NCBI GenBank assembly: GCA_964626065.1
Contig: CAZVDE010000004.1
Location: 110-64,109, forward strand
Source of the DNA: an uncultured Clostridiaceae bacterium
GTDB lineage: Bacteria; Bacillota; Limnochordia; Darwinibacteriales; Darwinibacteriaceae
DNA length: 64,000 bases
Direction of reading: 5' to 3'
Part shown: piece by piece, positions 7,143 through 63,553 of the stretch
Position numbering within the stretch: the first letter of the stretch is position 1
Layout of the letters: each line of letters begins with the position of its first letter
Made by a program: the position numbers and the translations under genes
The notes under the pieces: generated by a model
Told to the model about the DNA's origin: nothing
What the model saw: only the letters and a program-made list of their open reading frames with translations
The model's database searches: none

Positions 7143-9917
7143 CTAGATCGCATCCATACAGCGGCGGCAGATCCGGGGATGCTCAGGATCACCGCTCATT
7201 TCGGCAAAGTATTTCCAACAGCGTTCGCATTTCTCCCCTTCTGCCCTGCAAACATCAACCGAGATGCCTGCTTCGCTGTATAAAGCGCCCTCGCTGCCGG
7301 CCGGGCTTTTGATCTCCACAGCGGAAACGATGAGCAGCATACGAATATCGTCCGCGAAACTTTCTAACAGCTGTTTCTGGCGCCGTTCGGCATGAATGAC
7401 GACCCGGGCTTCATTAGAAGCACCAATCACCTTATCGCTGCGGGCCAGTTCCAAAGCCTTAGAGATAATCCTGCGGATTTCCAAGAACTCCTCCCAGCGG
7501 CGGTCCAGTTCCCCATTGATGAATTCCGCGGGCAGCTGTTCCCACAGACTGAAGTGGACGCTCTTTTCTTTCCGTACCGCTGCGGGCAGATGCTGCCAAA
7601 TCTCCTCCGCAGTAAACACTAAGATGGGCGCGATCAGCTGTGTCAGCTCCTTTAAAATAATCAGGAATGCGGTCTGCGCCGAGCGCCGTTCCCTGCTATC
7701 GGCCCGATCGCAGTAAAGCCTGTCTTTTAAGACATCAAGATAAAACGCCCCCAGGTCCACCGCGCAGAATTGGTGAACTGCATAATAGGCCAGATGAAAA
7801 TCGTATTTTTCATAGGCGCGGCGCATTCTATCACTAACCTTAGCCAGCTGCATCAAGGCCCAGCGATCCAATTCTTCCATTTCCCCATAAGGCACACTGT
7901 GCTCTTCCGGTTTAAAGTCATGTATATTACCCAGCATAAAACGGGCAGTGTTGCGGATTCTACGGTATGCCTCAGCCAGTTGTTTAAGAATATCGTTGGA
8001 GATCCGCACATCTCCCCGGAATTCCGCCGATGCAACCCACAGCCGCAGCACATCGGCGCCGTATTGTTCCCATACTTCCTCAGGGCCCACCACATTACCC
8101 ACCGACTTGGACATTTTTTTACCCTCGCCATCCACAACCATGCCGTGGGTTAAAACGGACCGGTAAGGCGCCTTCCCTGTCGTGGCCACAGAGGTGGAAA
8201 GAGATGATTGGAACCAACCCCTGTGCTGATCGCTCCCCTCCAGATAAAGGTCCGCGGGCCAAGCCAGTTCCGCATGTGTCGTCAGCACCGCGCGGTGCGA
8301 AACGCCCGAATCAAACCAAACATCCATCGTATCCTCGTCCTTACGGAAAGCAGTGCTGCCGCATGCGGGGCAGCGGTAGTCGTGCGGCAAAAAGTCCGCC
8401 GCCGGCCGAGTAAACCAGGCGTTCGCACCCTCTGCGCGAAAGATCTGGGCGATATGGTTAATGTTTGTTTGAGAAATCACCGCTTCGCCGCATTCACAGT
8501 ATAAAACGGGGATGGGCACACCCCAAATGCGCTGGCGAGAAATACACCAATCGCCCCGTTCCGCCACCATGCCCCGAATCCGTTCCTCGCCCCAGGCCGG
8601 AATCCATTCTACCCGTTCGATTTCTTGGAGCATTTCTGCCCGGAAATTATCAATGGAAATAAACCACTGTTCCGTGGAACGATAGACAATGGGTTCTTTG
8701 CACCTCCAGCAGTGGGGGTAAGAGTGCTCTACGAAATCTAATTTGAGCAGAAATCCGCCCTCTTCCAAATCTTCCGTAACTTTCTTGTTCCCCTCATCAA
8801 GTGTCAAACCGCTGTATGGGCCCGCCTCCTCTGTAAACCGGCCCAAGCCGTCTACGGGAGATAGGATGGGCAGGCCGTATTCCAGGCCCACAATATAGTC
8901 CTCATGGCCGTGGCCGGGGGCAGTATGGACACAGCCCGTACCGGCTTCGAGTGTAACGTGACCGCCTAAAATGACAAGGGAATCGCGGTCAAATAGGGGA
9001 TGCTCGCAAACGAGCCCTTCCAATTCGGCACCTTTGTATTCGCCCAACAATTCCAGGGCAGTAAGGCCCAATTCTTCCAAAACACTTTCCGCCAGCTCTT
9101 TAGCCAACACCAGATTACCTTTTTCCGTTTTGACAAGAATATAATCAAAATGAGGATGGAGCGCGATGGCTAGATTGGCCGGAATAGTCCAGGGTGTGGT
9201 GGTCCAGATCACAAAATAGGTATCTTTTTCTGTCAAAACGCCCTTGCCGTCCTTGAGGGCAAAACGCACATAAATGCTGGGCGAGCGAGACTCGCCATAC
9301 TCAATTTCTGCCTCGGCCAGCGCCGTCTGGCAGTCCGCACACCAGTAAACGGGCCTAAGGGCCTTATAAACGTAACCCTTCTCCACCATTTCGCCGAACG
9401 CTTCAATCTGCATCGCTTCATAGTCGTGCTTCAAAGTTAAATAGGGATCGCCCCAAGCGCCCCAAACTCCAAGCCTTTGGAATTGGGATCTTTGCATATC
9501 CACCTGTTCCAAGGCATATTTAGCGCATTCTTCGCGAAATTCGGCCTCGGACAATTCGGCCCTGCGTTTGCCCAGGGCTCTCACCACATGCAGCTCAATG
9601 GGCAGCCCATGTGTATCCCAGCCCGGAACGTAAGGCGTCTGATATCCGGCAAGCGACTTGGAACGCAGGACAAAATCCTTTAGAATTTTGTTTAATGCTG
9701 TGCCGATATGAATGTTACCGTTGGCATAAGGAGGCCCGTCATGCAGCACGAACAGTGGACGTTTCTGCTTGCGGCCCAATTCGCGCAGCCTCTCGTATGC
9801 CTGTTCCTTTTGCCATTTAGCGAGCATCTGCGGCTCCCTTTTGGGCAAATTGCCCCGCATGGGGAAATCTGTGACAGGCAGCTGTAGTGTTTTTTGATAG
9901 ACAGAACCCTTTTCCAA
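7143..9917 (-). CDS. ileS: isoleucine--tRNA ligase
   Basis: HIGH-type motif ([16 protein letters not shown]), KMSKS (KKMSKSVGN), and a C-terminal zinc motif CERCWKY...CRRC. The N-terminus aligns to B. subtilis IleS from ...[15 protein letters not shown]. The start is re-assigned to the TTG at 9917, behind a GAGGAG RBS with 9 nt spacing. The track ORF to 10118 runs through the T-box leader. Confidence 0.95.
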
Positions 9918-9924
9918 GACTAAC

Positions 9925-10185
9925 AACTCCTCAGTTAAATTTACATAAAAAAATCGCCCCTGAAAGGGACGAGAAACCCGCGGTACCACCCTAGTTAAGA
10001 CTGCCAAAAGCAGCCCTCGCTTTTCGGTTGTAACGGAACCACCGGCCCGGCCTACTGCGATTTCGGCCTGCGACTCCGGGGCGATCTTCCCTTGATTGCT
10101 TCCGGGATCCGCTTTCACCTACTCGGATTCTCTGTGCCCGGTCCTAATGGGTACTGTCCCCTTCATCATCGTTCAATATTAACAT
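9925..10185 (-). promoter_or_regulatory. T-box riboswitch leader (Ile specifier) for ileS
   Basis: The minus-strand RNA contains the stem-I AGAGA and AGUA motifs and a specifier region with AUC (GCGGAUCCCGG). It also carries the T-box sequence AACUAGGGUGGUACCGCGGG, then the terminator CGUCCC-UUUCA-GGGGCG plus U7, directly before the RBS. Confidence 0.8.
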
Positions 10186-31586: not shown

Positions 31587-32813
31587 CTAGAACTTACACT
31601 GCCATGATATGCCCAACGCCGGCGAGGTGCTAAAACCGGCCCCCATATTTCCCCGATCATACTCGCCCAATTCGAGCTGAACATGGCCTCGCGCAGCATT
31701 TCGCCGCAGCATTAGGGAATAATACAGTCGTTTCTTCAGCCAGTCATACTTGGCAATGATCCGCCCCTGCAGCCCCCGTTCAAATTTGATCTCCAGGCGG
31801 CCGATTCCATTCGGGCCGTCAAAACGAAGACCGTACGCGATCATCCCTCGCTGCCCGTCATAACGGGCAGTGCCGTTGAGAACATCAAGTTGAATCGAAC
31901 AAGCCTCCGCGACGCGGCGCAAGATCAAAGCCCGAGTGGGCTGCAGGCGTAGTTCCACGGACGCATCCTCACCTAAAGAAACACACTTCAGCGAAAACTG
32001 ATCGTAGGTCCTAGTTTGGGCCAGATTGCTGTGGCGGCGCAAATTGAAGGACAGCCTAACCCCGCCGAAATCAGTGCCCGCCTCCACTCTCCAACCCCGG
32101 CGATCGGGCGTATACTTGTTACTTTTCGCAGCTAAACTTACGAAACCGGCTTCCACCCGCTGCCAGAAAAAGTTAAGAAAAGACCTGCCGGCGCCTACCC
32201 CGATCTCGGCGATAGATGCCCGGGACAAATCCTGCCGCTGCTGCCAGCCTTGGCCCAGCACAGCCCGGAAAGTGCCCAAGTCAAGCAGGGCCTCCAGGGA
32301 GGCGGAACGGCCCACCACCGGGCCCCGGTGATGCAGCTGCATGCCCCGCAGTACGAGCGGCCCCGCCCGAACGTAGTTTTCACAAAACCATAAGTCGGCT
32401 AATTCACCCGTTCTAAGAGGAACACTGCCCAACATTCCCAGCCGCACCTGATCAGCAGCGAGGATCAGCGCAGTTGTAGCCGGGCCCAAATTGTCTTTGT
32501 GCAGAACACGAAACAAATCTTGTGAAGTATGGTGCGCTTTATTCTTTGTCCAATACAGGCTCAACCCGTTTTCGTCCGAAACACGCACCTGCCAATGGGG
32601 CTTAAAACTGACCCCGCCTGCTTCGAACAAAAAAGAACCGCCCCCCTGTGCGTCTAAATGCGCACCCTTATGGGCGGCGGCAAAAACAAGTTCCCGTTCT
32701 ATGGCATGACGGTCCAGCCGGCCTTGATAGGAACCACTTATCTCAACGGCCTCTGCCACAAAATTCAGGCCCAAACTGAAAAGAAGGATGAAAAAAACTC
32801 CGCGCATGTACAA
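31587..32813 (-). CDS. secreted beta-rich protein of unknown function
   Basis: 408 aa with a signal peptide (FFILLFSLGLNFVAEA). It is Arg/Trp-rich, with many alternating hydrophobic/polar stretches, and has a C-terminal ...ISWQCKF. No recognisable family. Confidence 0.6.
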   Translation of the reverse strand: MYMRGVFFILLFSLGLNFVAEAVEISGSYQGRLDRHAIERELVFAAAHKGAHLDAQGGGSFLFEAGGVSFKPHWQVRVSDENGLSLYWTKNKAHHTSQDLFRVLHKDNLGPATTALILAADQVRLGMLGSVPLRTGELADLWFCENYVRAGPLVLRGMQLHHRGPVVGRSASLEALLDLGTFRAVLGQGWQQRQDLSRASIAEIGVGAGRSFLNFFWQRVEAGFVSLAAKSNKYTPDRRGWRVEAGTDFGGVRLSFNLRRHSNLAQTRTYDQFSLKCVSLGEDASVELRLQPTRALILRRVAEACSIQLDVLNGTARYDGQRGMIAYGLRFDGPNGIGRLEIKFERGLQGRIIAKYDWLKKRLYYSLMLRRNAARGHVQLELGEYDRGNMGAGFSTSPALGISWQCKF

Positions 32814-48437: not shown

Positions 48438-49844
48438 CTACCCGTCCCTCCTTGCAAGCTTTTGTTCAGCCAATAAATCCTTTAAGATCATGATCGCTTC
48501 CCGCGGATGTTCTTCGGCCAACAGACCCATGGGGGCCATTATGTACTGCCCATCCAGAAAGTAACGCGGGTGTTTGGGCCGCAGCTCCAAAGGGGCCTCG
48601 TCTGTTTTTTCCGCGCCCGCCAGAATCGTCCGCGGCTCTTGGCTGTTTACCAAGACACCCCCTGTACCGATCACCCGATCCACTTCGGAGAGATCCTTCC
48701 CGTCCTGCACCCAGATCAGCCCCGAGGGCGTGTACAATTCTGACAAACGGCCCACATGGCGTCCCACCCCCAACCGGGCTGCCTGGCGCGCCAAAGAGGC
48801 GTCCAGTCTGGCCTCGCGCTCCGTTTGGGGCAGTAGTTCAGGCCGTTTAGAAAGCTTTTGGGCATAATTGGCAATGTCTTCTTCCGCCCAGCCTGAGTCC
48901 TCCGCTAAGACTTCGGCACCGACAGCTTCCAACAGCGAAAGCACGCTGACTCGCACCCCTAAATCGCCTTCCACCGTTCGTTTGGCGTGGGGCTCCGGCA
49001 GCCCCCGCAGGACAACTCCCGCGGTAGTTGGTGCCCCGCTGCCGAAAGAATGAATATCAGTAGTGGCCCCGCCCACATCAACAATCATTAAGTCGCCCCA
49101 GCCCGGCACGGTGCGGGTACCTTCGCTTAACAGCTGGCCCGCCTTTAATACTGCCGCGGGTGTGGGCATGAAGATACCCTCGATGAACCGAGCCGCCTTA
49201 TTCAAACCCTTGGCGAAGACTATCTTCTCCATGAAAACCCGCCTAATCACTTCGCGGGCCGGCTCCACCACGAGTTTGCCGATTTGCGGCATCACATTGG
49301 GCGCTATATAGGTGCTGAACCGTTTGGGAAACATACCGGCCGCCTCCGCACTCACACTGCGGTTTCCGGCAATCACCACCGGCAGCGGCCTAGGTAAACC
49401 GGCCAGCACTCCGGCATTATGTAAAATATTAGCAGTATTGCCTCCATCTGTGCCCCCGGCCAAGAGGATTATGTCGGGTTCAAGCTCGATTATTTCTTCC
49501 CGATCTTCATCCGTAAGCTGAAACGAATAGGTACGCAAAACGCGGGCCCCTGCGCCGAGAGCAGCCTGTCTTGCCGCTTTGGCCGTCAAATCCTGCACCA
49601 AACCGATCGCCACCATGCGCAGCCCCCCCGCGGCGCTGGAACAGGCCAATTTGCGGCTTGTCATGATTGTTTCTTCAGAAAGGCCCAGGCCTGCCAAGCC
49701 GTTCTCGAGGCCAATGCTTACATCATCGGGTGTTGTGGGCGCGTTCGATTTAGCCATAACCTCAACCGCGCTTAGATTCACCGCAGTGATCTTCGTAAAC
49801 GTGCTGCCTATATCAATCAGAACTAATACTTCGTCCATTTCCAA
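48438..49844 (-). CDS. glmL: glutamate mutase reactivase/chaperone GlmL (MutL)
   Basis: 468 aa with an ASKHA-like N-terminus (VLVLIDIGSTFTKITAV). It lies between the S and E subunit genes. Confidence 0.75.
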   Translation of the reverse strand: MEMDEVLVLIDIGSTFTKITAVNLSAVEVMAKSNAPTTPDDVSIGLENGLAGLGLSEETIMTSRKLACSSAAGGLRMVAIGLVQDLTAKAARQAALGAGARVLRTYSFQLTDEDREEIIELEPDIILLAGGTDGGNTANILHNAGVLAGLPRPLPVVIAGNRSVSAEAAGMFPKRFSTYIAPNVMPQIGKLVVEPAREVIRRVFMEKIVFAKGLNKAARFIEGIFMPTPAAVLKAGQLLSEGTRTVPGWGDLMIVDVGGATTDIHSFGSGAPTTAGVVLRGLPEPHAKRTVEGDLGVRVSVLSLLEAVGAEVLAEDSGWAEEDIANYAQKLSKRPELLPQTEREARLDASLARQAARLGVGRHVGRLSELYTPSGLIWVQDGKDLSEVDRVIGTGGVLVNSQEPRTILAGAEKTDEAPLELRPKHPRYFLDGQYIMAPMGLLAEEHPREAIMILKDLLAEQKLARRDG

Positions 49845-49848
49845 GCTA

Positions 49849-50259
49849 TCACGCCCCCAGATCGGATCTTAAGGTGGGAATCACTTCCTGCGGCAGCGTA
49901 CTGGGAGGATAAACCCTATCAAAGCCCAATTGTCTGAATTTGGCCTCAACCTCAGACCATTCTTGGCTCCCCACCACGAGATATCCGCCGATATACATCA
50001 GAATGTCCCCGATGCCCGCTTCAATAAGGGCATCTCGTAAACCGCGCACATCAATCTCGGCGTGGCCGTATAACGAAGAAACCATGATAGCGTCCGCATT
50101 TGTCTCTAACGCGGCCTCCACAAATTCTTTTTGGGATACCAATACTCCCAGATTAACAACGTTAAACCCCGCCTCCTGAAAAGAGATTTCCAAGATCTTA
50201 TTCCCGACCGCATGCACATCCGAACCTATTACACCCAAAACCAATGTTTTCGCATCCAT
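49849..50259 (-). CDS. glmS: glutamate mutase sigma (S) subunit, B12-binding
   Basis: Begins [23 protein letters not shown]... with the DxHxxG cobalamin-binding motif. Near-collinear with clostridial MutS. Confidence 0.9.
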
Positions 50260-53411: not shown

Positions 53412-53888
53412 TCACCCCTCTATCAGTTCCGTAATGCGAGAGTAGACCTCACCGGCGGGTCCTGTGGGCTTGTTTGGTTCTTTTTCAGCGCGGGTGACAA
53501 TTAAGATACTGTCATCACCCGCAATACTGCCGATCATTTCGGGCCATTCCAATTCATCAATCACCGCGGCCACCGCATGGGCGCCCCCGGGGTAAGTGCT
53601 AACCATGATCAGGGAACCGCTGAAATCGACCCCCCGTACGTAATCCTCGAAAATACGCTTAGCCCGCCTCAGCAGATCCCCCTTACTCACGGTGGGGGGC
53701 AGCGAGTATCTATAACCGCCCTTGCCGTTGGGGACTTTAGCCAAACGCAATTCTTTAATATCTCTGGAAATGGTGGCCTGGGTCACTTTAAACCCTTGCG
53801 CTGACAACAATTCCATTAATGCTTCCTGTGTTTCCACGTTGTGTTCCGCCACAATCTCCCAAATTTTGCTCTGCCGTCTATTCTTCAC
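53412..53888 (-). CDS. argR: arginine repressor
   Basis: Winged helix (QEALMELLSAQGFKVTQATISRDIKEL) plus a C-terminal arginine-binding domain (GDDSILIV). Confidence 0.9.
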   Translation of the reverse strand: MKNRRQSKIWEIVAEHNVETQEALMELLSAQGFKVTQATISRDIKELRLAKVPNGKGGYRYSLPPTVSKGDLLRRAKRIFEDYVRGVDFSGSLIMVSTYPGGAHAVAAVIDELEWPEMIGSIAGDDSILIVTRAEKEPNKPTGPAGEVYSRITELIEG

Positions 53889-55535: not shown

Positions 55536-57412
55536 TCCCTTCCGACCTGCAGCGGCGCGATTTTTCCGGTAAGCGCCGAGCGCACCGTGCGGGCCACATA
55601 CTCGGCCGTCAAGCCATACTCTCCATGCAGCTGGCTAATGCTGCCCTGGGGGATAAACTGATCGGGATAGCCCAAGCGTTCCACCCGGACACCTTTCTCG
55701 GCTGCCAATAATTCCAAGACCCCGCTGCCAAACCCGCCCGCCAAGACATTATCCTCCAAAGTCAAAACACATTTTGTAGCTCGGGCCAATTTGAGCAGCA
55801 AGGCTCGATCTAAGGGTTTGAGAGAGCGCACGTTAACAACTGAACAGCTGAATTCCGGTTCCAAGCCGCGCGCCGCTTCCAAGGCCACTTCCACCAAGGG
55901 CCCCACTGCGAAAATAACGCAGTCGCGCCCCCCTTTGATCTCCTGCGCGGCAACGGAACCCTCCCAATTAAGTTCAATCATGCCGTTAAAGGGTGCCGTT
56001 TGAGCCCGAGGGTAACGGATCGCCACCGGGCCGGGCTGCCGAAATGCCCAGTGCAGCATCGCTGCTAATTCCGCCCCGTTGCGGGGGGCAAGAATGGTCA
56101 AATTAGGGACTAAACGTAAAAAACTAATGTCGAAAACTCCATGGTGGGTGGGCCCATCATCGCCCACCACGCCGGCCCGATCGACCGCTATGACCACAGG
56201 AAGTTTTTGCAGGGCGATATCATGAATAATCTGATCATAGCCGCGCTGCAAAAAAGTCGAGTAAATCGCGGCAAAAGGCCTCAGTCCGTTTTTGGCCATG
56301 CCCGCGGCCAAGGTTAAGGCATGCTGTTCCGCAATACCCACATCAAAAAAACGGTCCGGGAACTCCCTGGCAAAAGCGCCCAATCCGGTACCATCACGCA
56401 TCGCGGCCGTAATTGCCACCACATCGGGGTTTTCTCTGGCCAATTTTGCCACAGTCCGGCCGAATACTTCACTGTAAGACATGGTTTCCACTTTCTGCAC
56501 CACGCGCAAAGGCCCCACACCGTGATAACGATGGGGGTTTTCTTCGGCCTGGGCGTGTCCGCGCCCTTTTTGCGTATAAACGTGCAGCAGCACCGGCCCT
56601 CGCCTATTCAAGGCGGCCCCGATCGCCCTTTGAAGTTGGGCTATGTTATGCCCGTCAAAGGGACCTAGATAAGTAAAACCCAGCTCCTCAAAGAGCTGCC
56701 CGGGCAGCATATTTTTCAACGTATTCTTAAAATAATGGGCCATTTTAGCAACGGGGTTTCCCACCACGGGTATTTTGCGCAGAAAGGCCGAAAGATCCTC
56801 GCGGGCCCTGTATAACCTGGTATCGGAGCGAATTCTGCCCAGATAGTCGCTTAAAGCCCCCACATTATTGGTAATGGACATCTCGTTGTCATTGAGGATA
56901 ACAACCAAATCGGTGCCCAACGAGCCCATGTGGTTTAAAGCCTCGAAGGCCATGCCCCCCGTTAAGGCACCATCGCCCATCACCGCCACCACATGGTAAT
57001 CCTCGCCTCGCAGATCACGGGCAATGGCCATTCCCGCAGCGGCCGAAATGGAGGTGGAGCTGTGGCCCACGCCAAAGTGATCGTGTTCGCTTTCCTTGGG
57101 TAGGGGAAACCCGGAAAGACCCTGCCATTGGCGGAGCGTGTGAAATCCTTCACGCCTGCCTGTAACCAGTTTGTGAGGATAGCATTGGTGGCCCACGTCC
57201 CAAACAATTCGATCGCGGGGACTAGATAAAGTGGAATGCAGGGCCAAGGTAAGCTCAACAACGCCCAAATTGGCCCCCAAATGGCCTCCCGTGCGCTCCA
57301 CTGTGCTGATGATCTCGCTGCGAATTTCCCCTGCCAAGGCCTCCAGCTCGTCAAGGGTCAGCTGTTTTAAATCCTGTGGAGATTTGATTTCTCTCAATAA
57401 AGATTGACCCAT
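55532..57412 (-). CDS. dxs: 1-deoxy-D-xylulose-5-phosphate synthase
   Basis: 626 aa with the TPP-binding motif GDGALTGGMAFEALN and a transketolase-like C-terminus. Confidence 0.95.
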   Translation of the reverse strand: MGQSLLREIKSPQDLKQLTLDELEALAGEIRSEIISTVERTGGHLGANLGVVELTLALHSTLSSPRDRIVWDVGHQCYPHKLVTGRREGFHTLRQWQGLSGFPLPKESEHDHFGVGHSSTSISAAAGMAIARDLRGEDYHVVAVMGDGALTGGMAFEALNHMGSLGTDLVVILNDNEMSITNNVGALSDYLGRIRSDTRLYRAREDLSAFLRKIPVVGNPVAKMAHYFKNTLKNMLPGQLFEELGFTYLGPFDGHNIAQLQRAIGAALNRRGPVLLHVYTQKGRGHAQAEENPHRYHGVGPLRVVQKVETMSYSEVFGRTVAKLARENPDVVAITAAMRDGTGLGAFAREFPDRFFDVGIAEQHALTLAAGMAKNGLRPFAAIYSTFLQRGYDQIIHDIALQKLPVVIAVDRAGVVGDDGPTHHGVFDISFLRLVPNLTILAPRNGAELAAMLHWAFRQPGPVAIRYPRAQTAPFNGMIELNWEGSVAAQEIKGGRDCVIFAVGPLVEVALEAARGLEPEFSCSVVNVRSLKPLDRALLLKLARATKCVLTLEDNVLAGGFGSGVLELLAAEKGVRVERLGYPDQFIPQGSISQLHGEYGLTAEYVARTVRSALTGKIAPLQVGRD

Positions 57413-57415
57413 AAA

Positions 57416-57985
57416 TTATGACCTCTTTTTGTTTTTCTCTGTAGTGAGGTGCACCCTAAGACCGATCCGCTCCAAAGAATGAAGCACTTTACCGGCGGCA
57501 AGTAGGATCGAAGTGGAATTTGAGATTGCAAAGCCCTTGCCGATCGCCTTTCCGCCCACCGTAACCGCGGCAATGAATGCCACCATCATAGTTGTGGCTA
57601 ATGCCTCGCCCACGCCCGCTGCACGCGTACTCAGCCTGAAAATGATCGCTGCGCCAACGGCGCCGCTTAATGTGCCCGCCACATCGCCCACCAAATCATT
57701 GCAAAAGGTAGATACCCGATCGGCGTTCCGGACCAGCCAAATCGCCTCTTTAGCGCCGAACAGCCGATTAGATGCCATGGCATGAAAGGGCGATTCTTCG
57801 CCGGCGGTGGCGGCCACACCGAGAACATCGAATACTACGCCGATTAGGATAATAAAAAATAGTAACAAGATGCTTAATGTCAGTGGTAAATACGACAATA
57901 CGCTGTTACTACCCAGATTAAGTATTACGGAGAAGGCAAAGGTGGTTAATGTTAAAGTAAGTACCGCTTTCCATCGTTTTTGCAT
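57416..57985 (-). CDS. oapA: small polytopic membrane protein, candidate OLE-associated protein OapA
   Basis: 189 aa, roughly 4 TM. It lies immediately downstream of a roughly 700-nt ORF-free region and upstream of dxs, which is the described ole-oapA context. Confidence 0.55.
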   Translation of the reverse strand: MQKRWKAVLTLTLTTFAFSVILNLGSNSVLSYLPLTLSILLLFFIILIGVVFDVLGVAATAGEESPFHAMASNRLFGAKEAIWLVRNADRVSTFCNDLVGDVAGTLSGAVGAAIIFRLSTRAAGVGEALATTMMVAFIAAVTVGGKAIGKGFAISNSTSILLAAGKVLHSLERIGLRVHLTTEKNKKRS

Positions 57986-58029
57986 TTTTTTCTTCCTTAG
58001 AAAAATACCGAGGTGAATGGCGGCAAAAT

Positions 58030-58700
58030 GGGTAAAGATTGTGGCTTAGGTCCAGCAGGTTTTCCCAAAGATCTTCCAACCCGTCACCGTGGCTGGCGGT
58101 TTCCCCTTTCTGATCCTTTCGCTTGTCACCAAAGTCGAGGCTGGATTACCACTTAGACCACACCGTAATCCCCATTTTACCATCCCCAAGAACGAGAAAC
58201 AGTCTAGGAGTTTTCCTCAACGCCCATGTTTCGTTTTCTAGTCTCTTTTGCAGTGGTGGTTTCAAGTGTTCCGCAGACTGCGGCCTTGGGTCCCTTTGGC
58301 CTTCAGGGCCCCCCATTTAACCACTATTCCCCAACCACCACTCAAGACAGGCTACTCTGCACCCAACACCACATGTACAATTCGAGCTGCGAAGCCGGAT
58401 CGCGTGCAGGTTCAATCCCAAGCCGTAAAAATACGTTCTCCATATTTCCACAGTCATGGGTCTCCGTGGAAGGAGGGTCAACGCCTACATGCCCTTGTAG
58501 ATCGCCCGCCTTCCTTAACCCCCAGCAGCAACCCCCGACTGGGCGTCGGAAGCCACCACCAAGGACTTCATCGATGTGCCCTTAACGGATTTTTAGGCCC
58601 GTCTTCGACAACGAAATAGACGACTAGAATACTGCGCCATTCACCTTGAGGTGGTCTTATTATATCACAAGCGGCAAAAGCGGCGCAAGTGGGCAGAAAA
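58030..58700 (-). ncRNA. ole: candidate OLE (ornate large extremophilic) RNA
   Basis: About 700 nt between ispA and the oapA-like gene, with only short spurious ORFs on either strand. It is GC-rich with many local inversions. The context (xseA-xseB-ispA-[RNA]-membrane protein-dxs-tlyA-nadK...recN) is the published OLE neighbourhood. The boundaries are approximate. Confidence 0.55.
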
Positions 58701-58710
58701 CTGGATTTAT

Positions 58711-59604
58711 TTAGCTGTCCCGAGTTAGAATGAACCGGGCAAGTTCGCGCAAAAACCAGGCCTGCTCCGAAAAACCCTCCAGTGAGGTAAGGCAAACTTG
58801 CACACAATTGCGCGCCAATTCACGCGATTTTTCTAGGCCGAATAAACGGGGGAACGTTTGCTTGCCCGCCCGCTCGTCCGAACCCACCGTCTTGCCCGTT
58901 TGGGAGCTGTCACCCGCCTCATCCAAAATATCGTCCGTAATTTGAAAGGCCAGTCCAAAGTTCCTGCCATAATCGGTCAAAGCTGCCAGCTGCTCTTCGC
59001 TGCAGCCGCCCACTAGTGCGCCGCCCCGCAGGGCAGCCGTAAACAGGGCCCCCGTCTTATGGCTGTGAATATAATACAGGGTATCTTGGCCTACTTCTTT
59101 GCCTTCCGACAAAATATCCACCGCCTGCCCGCCCACCATTCCCCGCGAGCCGATGGCGGCGGCCAGTTCGGCCGTGACCCGCAGCGTAGTTTTGGGGCTG
59201 ATACCATATTTTTCCGGCATTTTCGTAAGCTCCGCAAAAGCCTCCGTTAATAGGCCATCGCCTGCCAACACGGCCATAGCTTCACCGTACACCCGATGAT
59301 TGCTTGGTTTTCCCCGGCGCAGATCATCATCATCCATGCAGGGAAGATCATCGTGAATCAGAGAATAGGCATGCACCATTTCCAGCGCGGCGGCCAGGCC
59401 CGAAGCCTGCGTCACATCGCCGCCCACCGCTTCACAGGCAGCCATCGCTAATAGGGCCCGCAGGCGCTTGCCGCCCTCCAAGGTGGAGTAACGCATCGCT
59501 TCATGTAAAAGCCTAGGCTGATCCTGAACACCGGGCAATGCGGCAGCTAATATTCTTTCCACCTTTTCCAAACGCACGGCCCAGCAGTGGTCAAAGTTCT
59601 TCAC
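58711..59604 (-). CDS. ispA: farnesyl diphosphate synthase
   Basis: The two Asp-rich motifs LIHDDLPCMDDDDLRRG and ITDDILD. Confidence 0.95.
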   Translation of the reverse strand: MKNFDHCWAVRLEKVERILAAALPGVQDQPRLLHEAMRYSTLEGGKRLRALLAMAACEAVGGDVTQASGLAAALEMVHAYSLIHDDLPCMDDDDLRRGKPSNHRVYGEAMAVLAGDGLLTEAFAELTKMPEKYGISPKTTLRVTAELAAAIGSRGMVGGQAVDILSEGKEVGQDTLYYIHSHKTGALFTAALRGGALVGGCSEEQLAALTDYGRNFGLAFQITDDILDEAGDSSQTGKTVGSDERAGKQTFPRLFGLEKSRELARNCVQVCLTSLEGFSEQAWFLRELARFILTRDS

Positions 59605-61031: not shown

Positions 61032-61994
61032 CTAATCAGGCCTAGGTGGAAAAACGGGGAAATTAGCTTTTAGAGCCGCAAAGTACGCCGCCCCATAGGC
61101 GTTGTCAACGCTGTAGTTAGGTCCGGCGAAATAAAGGTTCCATGCGGGCAAAGCGGCCACAAGTTCCGTTCTGATCAGCGAATTCGCGGCCACACCGCCT
61201 ACCAGCAATAGATCGCGGCATTCCGTTCGGCCCTGGGCCCACGTGATCCAGTTAATTAAGGTGCGGCTGAGAACCTGCAGGCAAGATGCGGCTAATATTT
61301 CCGGTTCAACTTGGCCGACCATTCTTTCTAAGGCGGTGAGCGGCCCGGAAAAGCTGACTGCGCCCTCACGATGGGAGAAAGGCGCAGCTATAGTCCGCTG
61401 TGCTCGCAGCGCCAGTTGTTCCAGAGCCGGGCCCGCGGGAAAATCGAGGCCCAATTTAACGCCTAAACGATCTAGAAACTGGCCCGCATGCAGATCGGAG
61501 GTGCCTCCCCACAACTCAACCTGCAACGACCAGTCTTCACGGCGCCGGACAAAAGTAAGTTCGGTCGTACCCCCGGATAAGTGCACTGTCAAAAATTCCT
61601 TCTGTAGGGGCCCGCCGCCGCTGGCAATTCCACTCCAAATATGCATTTCTTGATGTGTGAACTCATAACAGGGAATTGAAAATATGTTGGCCAAGGCACG
61701 AGAAAAGCTTGTACCCGGCAAAAAGACAGGTAGATATGAACCTTTTTGCGGGCGGGGTTGAACAGATACGCCCACTGCCGCTAATTGCCCTGCCCCTAAA
61801 TTTAAAGGAAAATCAGCCGTTAACAGGGGTAGATTCTCTATATGTTGAAACAAGGCTTCTGATTGCCGTAATCCCCTGGAACCAGAAGCCACCTTAAGAT
61901 ATTTTCGCCGATCCGCGATGATCTTTCCGTTTTCTGCCAGCAAACACAGGGAAGTAGTATAATTGCTCGTGTCTACGCCCAGTGCAACCCTCAT
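61032..61994 (-). CDS. Kae1/TsaD-family (ASKHA) protein, divergent paralog
   Basis: GVDTSNYTTS at the N-terminus, HxxxH motif (THQEMH), LSGGTTEL, SFSGPLT, LVGGVAANS and VDNAYGAAY all align to TsaD blocks. It sits at the nusB-xseA position usually held by folD. Confidence 0.7.
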   Translation of the reverse strand: MRVALGVDTSNYTTSLCLLAENGKIIADRRKYLKVASGSRGLRQSEALFQHIENLPLLTADFPLNLGAGQLAAVGVSVQPRPQKGSYLPVFLPGTSFSRALANIFSIPCYEFTHQEMHIWSGIASGGGPLQKEFLTVHLSGGTTELTFVRRREDWSLQVELWGGTSDLHAGQFLDRLGVKLGLDFPAGPALEQLALRAQRTIAAPFSHREGAVSFSGPLTALERMVGQVEPEILAASCLQVLSRTLINWITWAQGRTECRDLLLVGGVAANSLIRTELVAALPAWNLYFAGPNYSVDNAYGAAYFAALKANFPVFPPRPD

Positions 61995-62409: not shown

Positions 62410-62622
62410 TCAAAAGCGGCCGGTGATCTTAAAGGAATCATCCGCCGAATCAAAACGAGCGCCCAAATAAAACCCCGCTGCCACGCATAAAATCACAAAC
62501 AATCCCCGCAGCACACCATAACGGATGATGATCCAGCCAACAATCAGGCCTAAAACAGAACCATACACCTTCCCGGCGTGACGGGTTAGAATATCCCGGA
62601 ACCTATTAGCCATCTGCATCAC
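62410..62622 (-). CDS. small membrane protein (DUF2273-like) of the Asp23 module
   Basis: 70 aa, 2 TM, located between the AmaP-like gene and nusB. Confidence 0.6.
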   Translation of the reverse strand: MMQMANRFRDILTRHAGKVYGSVLGLIVGWIIIRYGVLRGLFVILCVAAGFYLGARFDSADDSFKITGRF

Positions 62623-62628
62623 ACTCCT

Positions 62629-63156
62629 TTAAGGCAGCGGATCAATGATTGTTTCCTCTCGGCGAGCGATTGCCGCCACAACTATTTCCACTTCCTGAAT
62701 GGCTACGCCCACCGTATCCTCCACATACTGCTTTACCTTCTCCTGCAGCTCTTCCGTTAACTGAGGGATATTATAATCGGGCAAGATCTGAATATCCAAA
62801 CGGACCTTGGGATGTTCCACATCAACTATGCGCACCGCCGCATCTTTAATCCCAGCCATCTCCCGGGCAGATTCCATAATCAAACCTTCGATACAATCTG
62901 TGCTCACCCGCACCGCACCCAGCTCCCTAGCGTAGACTATATACCGTTTGCGCTCATACCTAACGGCTAAAATCACCAGGTATACCCCGAGAAGAACCAA
63001 AATCAAAGCGGGGATTGAGGCATCAAGGGCTAGGTTGGGCGACTGCAACCAGTTGATGACGGCTGGATTGCCCGCGATGGTAACGGCTAAAAGAGCGGCA
63101 AACAGGAATAACACAGCGGCGCTCAATGCTAGAAAAACCCGATCCAATATGGTCAT
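62629..63156 (-). CDS. Asp23 membrane-anchor protein (AmaP-like)
   Basis: 175 aa with N-terminal TM segments. It lies directly downstream of the Asp23-family gene. Confidence 0.6.
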   Translation of the reverse strand: MTILDRVFLALSAAVLFLFAALLAVTIAGNPAVINWLQSPNLALDASIPALILVLLGVYLVILAVRYERKRYIVYARELGAVRVSTDCIEGLIMESAREMAGIKDAAVRIVDVEHPKVRLDIQILPDYNIPQLTEELQEKVKQYVEDTVGVAIQEVEIVVAAIARREETIIDPLP

Positions 63157-63157
63157 T

Positions 63158-63553
63158 TTACCTCACCTTAACCGTAGTTTCTTCCGGCACCGTTTCCTGC
63201 GCCGGGAAGTTAACCCCAAGGACATGAATATTCACTTCCATAACATCCAACCCGGTCATGACCTCAATTGTCCGTTTCACATTTTCCTGGATCTGTTGGG
63301 CCACTTTAGGAATGCTTTCGCCGTATTGGATAATTACCGAAAGGTCCACGATGCATTGGTGCTCGCCCAGATCGACCTTGACCCCTTTAGCCAAATTTCG
63401 GTGCCCAAGCATCTCCGCAATGCCGCCGGCAATGCCGCCGCTCATGCCTGCCACGCCCGAAATCTCGGTGGCCGCCAGGCCCGCAATTATACCTACAACC
63501 TCGTTGGCGATCTTCAAGTCTCCCAATTCGCCACGCTGCTGCTTTTCCGACAT
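63158..63553 (-). CDS. Asp23/Gls24-family alkaline shock protein
   Basis: 131 aa with the family signature (EVVGIIAGLAATEISGVAGMSGG...). Confidence 0.85.
   Translation of the reverse strand: MSEKQQRGELGDLKIANEVVGIIAGLAATEISGVAGMSGGIAGGIAEMLGHRNLAKGVKVDLGEHQCIVDLSVIIQYGESIPKVAQQIQENVKRTIEVMTGLDVMEVNIHVLGVNFPAQETVPEETTVKVR

Follow-up and report, generated by a model that had tools for sequence, protein, structure and literature searches.

A full-length OLE RNA gene and the adjacent oapA in an uncultured lineage of Bacillota

Identification of the RNA gene

What occupies the longest gap in an otherwise tightly packed bacterial gene cluster? This question is raised by a stretch of 64,000 nucleotides (nt), hereafter the window, from contig CAZVDE010000004.1 of an uncultured Clostridiaceae bacterium that GTDB places in the Limnochordia. 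The gap in question (57986-58710) is 725 nt long and fits exactly between two minus-strand genes. One of its borders is the ATG end of an open reading frame (ORF) of 189 amino acids (aa; 57416-57985), and the other is the stop codon of the farnesyl diphosphate (FPP) synthase gene ispA (58711-59604; NCBIfam NF045485 (FPPsyn), 344.6 bits; Pfam polyprenyl_synt). In the greedy gene map no other stretch without a same-strand ORF in this run of minus-strand genes is as long. An earlier reading made without database searches (the sequence-only reading) had proposed that the gap contains a structured RNA of about 700 nt, a candidate OLE RNA. OLE (ornate, large, extremophilic) RNA ranks with the largest and most highly conserved non-coding RNAs of bacteria that lack a known biochemical function; the published examples are ~600 nt long and form some 25 base-paired substructures. 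Unless stated otherwise, all features described below lie on the minus strand.

The whole window was scanned against Rfam 15 at the gathering threshold. This is the check that the sequence-only reading had suggested, and it returned a highly significant match to the OLE family (RF01071) at 58656..58001, with 461.1 bits against a gathering score of 50 and an E-value of 3.8e-132. The match spans model positions 1-616 of 616, that is, it is not truncated. The RNA gene defined by the full extent of the match (58001-58656) is 656 nt long, and the structured core closed by helix P1, as delineated by RNAalifold and pair counts, occupies 58011-58646. The RNA is thus ~640-656 nt long rather than 700 nt; the gap coordinates in the earlier proposal were exact, and the strand, which it had left unstated, is minus. 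No Rfam family other than OLE reached the gathering threshold in the gap. Transfer-messenger RNA (tmRNA) and RNase P, both already set aside in the earlier reading, were rejected together with other RNA families, since Rfam reports none of them at the locus and ARAGORN finds no tmRNA in the window. All 656 positions of the RNA are identical in a metagenome contig, JBEFFC010020544.1 (GCA_040436515.1). Taking these data together with those on the neighboring gene presented below, we conclude with a probability of roughly 96% that 58001-58656 encodes a full-length OLE RNA and 57416-57985 its membrane partner OapA. The RNA is an ordinary, canonical full-length OLE, known in kind and detectable with the standard Rfam model, and set apart only by clade-specific elaborations of P8 and P9.

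It might be argued that the region codes for a protein on the opposite strand. The plus strand does contain long stop-free stretches, and two ORFs can be called there mechanically, one of 123 aa (58248-58619) and one of 119 aa (58226-58585). However, Pfam matches neither of them at E <= 0.01. No reading frame is kept across 24 homologous regions: the longest open one measures anywhere from 69 to 195 codons and changes in position and frame from region to region. Substitutions track base-pair covariation rather than codon periodicity. Moreover, either ORF would be a lone plus-strand gene amid packed minus-strand genes. We consider it extremely improbable that either is a real gene, and both were rejected. 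The earlier statement that the gap holds no credible ORF is thus reinforced by the lack of Pfam matches and of a conserved frame, with the caveat that the two mechanical plus-strand ORFs do exist. Neither of the two outcomes that the sequence-only reading had named as refuting its proposal was observed: the OLE model has a significant hit, and the region yielded no protein-coding gene.

Covariation and conservation

The minus-strand RNA is predicted to fold into a structure with a minimum free energy (MFE) of -252.9 kcal/mol, compared to -224.1 +/- 4.8 kcal/mol for dinucleotide shuffles (z = -6.0), and none of the 20 shuffles was as good. The Rfam consensus structure is largely preserved, as 133 of its 141 pairs (94%) are standard (Watson-Crick or G-U) in the window RNA. 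Covariation was analyzed in an alignment of 25 OLE RNAs (the window and 24 relatives, 51-80% identical to the window), which was constructed with MAFFT without any structural input. With the 18 helices of the Rfam structure laid over this alignment, 91.0% of the pair cells are paired, compared to 41-45% if the 3' partners are slid by 1-3 columns. Compensatory changes, affecting both sides of a pair, are present in 91 of the 141 Rfam pairs, and not one of 500 column shuffles reached any of the five covariation measures. The description of the region as structured is therefore borne out both by the folding energy and by strong covariation.

RNAalifold independently recovered the Rfam helices and, in addition, three long-range helices that are unpaired in the Rfam model. 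The P1-P3 region, five helices beyond those of Rfam, comprises 33 pairs, of which 22 show compensatory changes (94.4% of cells paired). Primary sequence is conserved as well: 172 of the 656 positions (26.2%) do not vary among the 25 sequences, and the published figure is ~25% of near-invariant OLE nucleotides (PMC12265935). Wherever a column reaches 90% conservation, the window has the majority base.

OapA, the downstream protein

The sequence-only reading expected a membrane protein of roughly 190 aa and about four transmembrane helices directly after the RNA. The 189-aa protein (57416-57985) agrees well with this expectation. Its hydropathy profile has four peaks, near residues 16, 35-54, 107 and 132-139, and the AlphaFold2 model has long helices at residues 2-31, 34-60, 87-119 and 124-154. 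An alignment of 28 homologues revealed the remaining hallmarks of OapA. The DxxxD motif (DLVGD, residues 97-101) has both aspartates and the glycine (D-x-x-G-D) invariant, and it is accompanied by a conserved PFHAM motif and a C-terminal tail rich in lysine and arginine. The last 20 residues of the window protein include six K/R and two D/E, and basic tails are present in nearly all homologues; for OapA, positive charges are described as clustering on the cytoplasmic face. The Shine-Dalgarno sequence AAGGAAG (57992-57998) is separated from the ATG by 6 nt and from the end of P1 by 12 nt.

At default thresholds neither Pfam nor NCBIfam has a hit for this protein, and a PDB sequence search found no relative. 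The identification was therefore drawn from the synteny of homologues, motifs and fold comparison. The best structural match of the modeled protein is the membrane domain of an archaeal CorB of the CNNM family (7M1U), which is also the top structural hit reported for OapA of Halalkalibacterium halodurans (PMC11332333). The Pfam CNNM model gives the window protein 17.2 bits, below the threshold of 28.4 bits, and it hits 21 of the 28 homologues at E <= 1. Such a sub-threshold score fits the view of Fernando and Breaker that OapA is the next-closest cluster after MpfA.

We detected 490 homologues, almost all of them unnamed proteins from metagenome-assembled genomes (MAGs) of Bacillota or Limnochordia, some with a precomputed CNNM domain. 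An identical protein is encoded on 13 contigs of the public collection, and the nearest named homologues from Bacillaceae (Oceanobacillus, Virgibacillus) are 39-43% identical. Based on the OapA hallmarks in the sequence and the invariable adjacency of ole and oapA described in the next section, we name the gene at 57416-57985 oapA. A size of ~190 aa, four transmembrane helices, a DxxxD motif, a basic tail and a gene directly downstream of ole also characterize its counterpart in H. halodurans, in which the tail is cytoplasmic; the two were likened by these properties rather than by sequence alignment. The CNNM transporters MpfA, CorB and CorC differ from the window protein, which has no CBS or CorC_HlyC domains and four rather than three transmembrane helices (PMC11332333). 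They also differ in the DxxxD motif, which CNNM domains do not have.

Relatives and synteny

Relatives of the locus were compiled as loci encoding homologues of the downstream protein, with one genome per GTDB species, supplemented with exact-match metagenome contigs. Upstream DNA of 600 nt or more is available for 26 of these loci, and each of them has a full-length OLE (408-538 bits) as the direct upstream neighbor of the oapA homologue. Another two end at a contig edge and contain the matching 3' portion of OLE, and the remaining two have less than 260 nt of upstream DNA. The representatives of the nearest GTDB species share 65-69% identity in OapA and 78-80% in OLE. The relatives are Bacillota or Limnochordia MAGs, Anaerobacillus and Natronincola; typical hosts of OLE are Bacillota with an anaerobic or extremophilic way of life.

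One contig labeled 'uncultured Victivallales' (CAZRCN010000185.1) also carries a full-length OLE of 438.7 bits and an oapA relative. The label probably reflects an error of binning or labeling, or else a transfer; OLE hits outside Bacillota are discussed as such in PMC11332333.

Gene neighborhood and transcription

According to Pfam and NCBIfam, the minus-strand genes are arranged in the order xseA-xseB-ispA-ole-oapA-dxs-tlyA-nadK-argR-recN-spoIVB, which includes the order put forward in the sequence-only reading. The published neighborhood of ole is the same gene cluster (PMC12265935), with genes for isoprenoids, DNA repair, translation and NAD. On the same strand, xseA is preceded by spoIIIAH, asp23, amaP, DUF2273, nusB and a TsaD-like gene, and beyond spoIVB there is a glutamate mutase / methylaspartate cluster; the window thus contains the sporulation genes spoIVB and spoIIIAH as well as a glutamate mutase cluster.

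The spacer between the ispA stop codon and OLE is 54 nt long (58657-58710) and has no promoter-like site, and oapA begins 15 nt downstream of the OLE match. A promoter and terminator scan of 57300-59000 gave a number of sites not above that in shuffles, and within this region no sigma-70-like promoter or intrinsic terminator was seen between ispA, ole and oapA. An independent transcription unit is therefore without support. The short spacers of 54 and 15 nt, together with the absence of promoters and terminators, are consistent with polycistronic transcription of ole in this organism; in H. halodurans ole is transcribed within a polycistronic RNA (PMC12265935).

Several of the neighboring genes merit a comment. 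The argR gene (53412-53888) is the fifth gene downstream of ole in the same strand run, and ArgR is an unpublished candidate OLE-binding protein according to PMC12265935. An asp23-amaP-DUF2273 trio of the alkaline-shock type (62410-63553) is located just upstream of nusB; the Asp23-family gene yqhY is among the frequent neighbors of ole (PMC12265935). Between nusB and xseA there is a paralogue of the TsaD/Kae1 family (61032-61994). Its scores are far below the TsaD cut-offs (111 versus 208 and 96 versus 296 bits), and it is probably not the canonical t6A enzyme. The cluster at 44052-50259 codes for a B12-binding subunit, MutL, MutE, AtuA-like and DUF4387 proteins and methylaspartate ammonia-lyase, which suggests anaerobic glutamate fermentation in the host.

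Helices of the window RNA

The window RNA has every helix from P1 to P14.1, with P7, P8, P9 and the P13 OapB site among them. Helix numbers were assigned by us according to the order along the consensus. P1 is formed by a 5' strand at 58636-58646 and a 3' strand at 58011-58021 (11 pairs, 9 of them compensatory, 94.5% of cells paired). P2, obtained from RNAalifold and pair counts, joins 58624-58635 with 58199-58207. P3/P3.1 has its 5' strand at 58607-58622 and its 3' strand at 58221-58238, and comprises 4 + 9 pairs, 12 of the 13 compensatory. Read from the alignment, P3 and P3.1 of the window RNA contain 12 standard pairs and one G-A mismatch. The P3 helix, typically 12 bp long, has been proposed to span the membrane (PMC12265935). 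The P7 hairpin (58417-58460; helices 5 and 6 of the pair test) is a feature kept in 'full-length' OLE RNAs (PMC11332333). The P12-P14 domain with its four-way junction region (58022-58181) corresponds to helices 13-18, which are 86.6-99.2% paired and have compensatory changes in 36 of 46 pairs.

At the 5' end of the RNA, the segment CCACCUCAAGGUGA (58641-58654, RNA nt 3-16) can fold into a small local hairpin, flagged on the opposite strand in the terminator scan. As this hairpin overlaps the 5' strand of P1, it could compete with P1 formation.

Dimerization and protein-binding elements

The elements that the literature ties to dimerization of the RNA or to the binding of OapA, OapB and OapC are all present in the window at the level of sequence. 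Among those implicated in dimerization, the P4 hairpin (58586-58601, 94.7% paired) has an A-rich loop, CUAAAAAU, at 58589-58596; in structures determined by cryo-electron microscopy L4 is the A-A dimer bridge B1 (PMC12286853, PMC12265935). The long hairpin P5/P5.1 (58519-58565; 20 pairs, 98.6% paired, 10 compensatory) ends in the loop GCCCA (58540-58544), and P6/P6.1 (58473-58509; helices 3 and 4 of the pair test) ends in the loop AAGGGCAU (58489-58496). The GGGC of the P6.1 loop is complementary to the GCCC of the P5.1 loop, and L5.1/L6.1 is an intermolecular kissing-loop contact (PMC12265935). The long P9 arm (58240-58349; helices 8-10 of the pair test) carries the apical loop GAAGGCCAA, which includes a GGCC palindrome at 58298-58301. 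At the equivalent place the P9 apices of relatives read GGCC, GGGCCC, GUAC or AGCU. Palindrome switching of this kind in P9 (GGCC to GAUC or AGCU) is the evidence of Kretsch et al. for a symmetric kissing loop, bridge B3 (PMC12286853).

Partial OapA sites have been mapped to palindromes in or near P2 and P4a (PMC12265935). We matched them to two candidate sites in the window, and this assignment, made from the sequences, is our own. The first is the CUAG palindrome (58624-58627) in the 5' strand of P2 (GCAGUAUUCUAGUC), which is invariant in the 25 sequences. The candidate second site is the palindrome CAUCGAUG (58569-58576) in P4a/J4a-5, followed by GAAGU; it is identical to the Rfam consensus, and its columns are mostly invariant. 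By position, the region composed of CAUCGAUG and GAAGU would also be the 5' half of the kink-turn (k-turn) bound by OapC, which binds k-turn nucleotides flanking P5 (PMC9723947; also PMC12265935). On either side of P5, the putative k-turn halves AUCGAUGAAGU and GUUAAGG match the consensus exactly and show little or no variation in the alignment. The motif CAUCGAUGAAGU is present alongside GUUAAGG in both the Rfam match and the alignment.

The candidate OapB site is the P13 hairpin (58119-58138), which has a GUGA tetraloop of the GNRA type at 58126-58129. The hairpin reads UCGAC-U-UUG-GUGA-CAA-G-CGA, and its bulged U is three pairs below the GUGA loop. A GNRA loop and a single-nucleotide bulge on P13 are the requirements for OapB binding (PMC7936274). 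Another GUGA tetraloop, in P14.1 (58084-58087), was identified from the Rfam match and by motif reading; in H. halodurans P14.1 is a weak secondary OapB site (PMC7936274).

This set of elements also bears on whether the RNA might act solely in cis, as a long structured 5' leader for the expression of oapA and dxs, rather than as a stable trans-acting RNA. The end of P1 is only 12 nt away from the oapA Shine-Dalgarno sequence and there is no terminator or promoter between OLE and oapA, so that both are very probably part of one transcript. However, a simple leader would have no need for the protein-binding and dimerization elements, all of which are kept in the window. No expression platform, either a terminator or a helix sequestering the Shine-Dalgarno sequence, was seen. 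Furthermore, the OLE RNA of H. halodurans is abundant, binds OapA, OapB and OapC, and is localized to the membrane (PMC12265935, PMC9723947, PMC7936274). We regard a purely cis-acting leader as highly unlikely.

Elaborations of P8 and P9

The P8 hairpin (58354-58411; helix 7 of the pair test, 90.2% paired) has an enlarged apex. Infernal treats the apices of both P8 and P9 as local ends, with 31 nt in P8 against 6 model positions and 46 nt in P9 against 37. The length of P8 varies among relatives, and the longer P8 is common to the window and seven of them (L005-L011). In the alignment only the window and these seven relatives have a side hairpin in the 3' strand of P9, CCGCA-GUC-UGCGG in the window RNA (58271-58283). 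The side hairpin is predicted in the full-length MFE fold. Folded singly, all eight homologous segments form a hairpin of 4-7 bp with differing stem sequences, the z-scores being weak (-1.5 to -2.7). RNAalifold did not recover the side hairpin from the eight-sequence P9 sub-alignment, because MAFFT placed the stems out of register. We tentatively consider the P9 side hairpin to be a clade-specific elaboration suggested by these sequences.

At first glance, diverged apices might be taken as a sign of decay, and the window RNA as a non-functional relic of OLE. The P8 and P9 apices indeed fall outside the Rfam model, and 8 of the 141 consensus pairs are non-standard. Nevertheless, the consensus base is present at every column with at least 90% conservation, 94% of the consensus pairs are intact, and the divergent apices are common to seven related species, with covarying stems. 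In addition, oapA is intact, and the identical protein is encoded on 13 public contigs. A decaying relic is accordingly a most improbable explanation. The locus shows that P8 and P9 can accommodate expansion, in addition to the reduction described earlier.

It is conceivable, if rather doubtful, that the window and the seven relatives make up an 'expanded' OLE subtype, the opposite of the reduced variants 1 and 2. In that case, partners specific to the lineage might dock at the P8 apex and the P9 hairpin, or these elements might change the shape of the dimer formed through the P9 kissing loop.

Comparison with known systems

The window RNA shares with 'full-length' OLE (RF01071; Fernando & Breaker 2024, PMC11332333) P7, P8, a full P9, the P13 OapB site, oapA downstream and neighbors involved in isoprenoid synthesis and DNA repair. 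Compared to the full-length norm of ~600 nt it is longer (656 nt), its P8 apex has 31 nt instead of 6, and P9 has a putative extra hairpin. OLE variant 1 (TANB77) and variant 2 (RF39) have the same core conserved nucleotides as the window, but P7, P8 and P9 are shortened or missing in them, and variant 1 is often devoid of the OapB site (PMC11332333). The window RNA retains all three helices, with P8 and P9 enlarged, and is therefore neither variant 1 nor variant 2.

ROOL, GOLLD, raiA and HEARO are likewise large, structured RNAs of unknown function, some of them homo-oligomeric (PMC12286853). However, they are not paired with oapA, and in the window interval Rfam matches only OLE.

No observation contradicts the assignment of the locus as OLE and OapA, which nevertheless has some limits. 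The apices of P8 and P9 cannot be aligned to the Rfam model. Neither oapB (ybzG, KOW) nor oapC (ybxF, L7Ae) was found among the small ORFs tested in the 64-kb window, although this search was not exhaustive. The biochemical function of OLE has not been solved even in model species (PMC12265935), and thus any mechanism can be put forward here only by analogy. A similarly non-exhaustive search gave no match to mpfA (CNNM-CBS) among the small and ~400-aa ORFs tested in the window. In the published phylogenetic profile, genomes with the OLE complex encode OapB and OapC and lack MpfA. The absence of oapB, oapC and mpfA from 64 kb means little, as such genes normally lie elsewhere in the genome.

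Possible function

The steps of the mechanism outlined here are taken from work on H. halodurans and two Clostridium species. By analogy, ole would be transcribed within the long xseA...recN polycistronic transcript, from which the RNA would be excised or accumulate as a stable RNA of ~640 nt. Two OLE molecules would join into a homodimer, held together by the A-A contacts of L4, by those of L5.1/L6.1 and by the palindromic kissing loop of P9. OapA, a CNNM-like putative transporter of divalent cations, would bind OLE cooperatively and tether it to the membrane, OapB would bind the GNRA hairpin of P13, and OapC the k-turn located where P5 begins. Such a ribonucleoprotein may help the cell to cope with short-chain alcohols, cold, excess Mg2+ and poor carbon sources. 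In the model species, growth under stress from alcohol, cold, Mg2+ or carbon source is supported by the OLE particle (PMC12265935, PMC9723947, PMC7936274, PMC12286853, PMC10898510).

What OLE does at the molecular level can be approached speculatively, provided that the identification is correct. We favor, at somewhat less than even odds, a role of the RNA as a structured regulatory scaffold, through which OapA-dependent ion homeostasis would be modulated and linked to other bound proteins. This model is preferred over a ribozyme because OapA folds like a CNNM transporter of divalent cations and because an anticorrelation between ole and the Mg2+ transporter MpfA has been reported (PMC11332333). 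Both a ribozyme role and a membrane-spanning P3 helix are hypotheses in the literature; judging from recent structures, OLE may be the first known case of a natural membrane-spanning RNA. In the literature from 2025 onward we found no paper resolving the function of OLE.

The locus is nothing new in kind. It is a clean, complete example from a poorly sampled uncultured lineage of Bacillota, and it adds covariation data, including those for P1-P3 and for the palindromic P9 loop. As to annotation, the gap becomes ole and the downstream 'hypothetical protein' becomes oapA.

Other features of the window

Outside the ole locus, a 408-aa ORF (31587-32813) has no Pfam match at E <= 1e-5. There is a single tRNA gene, tRNA-Cys (GCA) at 1706-1779, on which Rfam and ARAGORN agree. 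A T-box leader (Rfam RF00230, 111.7 bits) at 9962-10175 is located directly upstream of a gene for a class I aminoacyl-tRNA synthetase (7143-10118) with a zinc finger of the IleRS type. The mechanically called ORF start at 10118 overlaps the T-box, and the real start codon must therefore lie further downstream.

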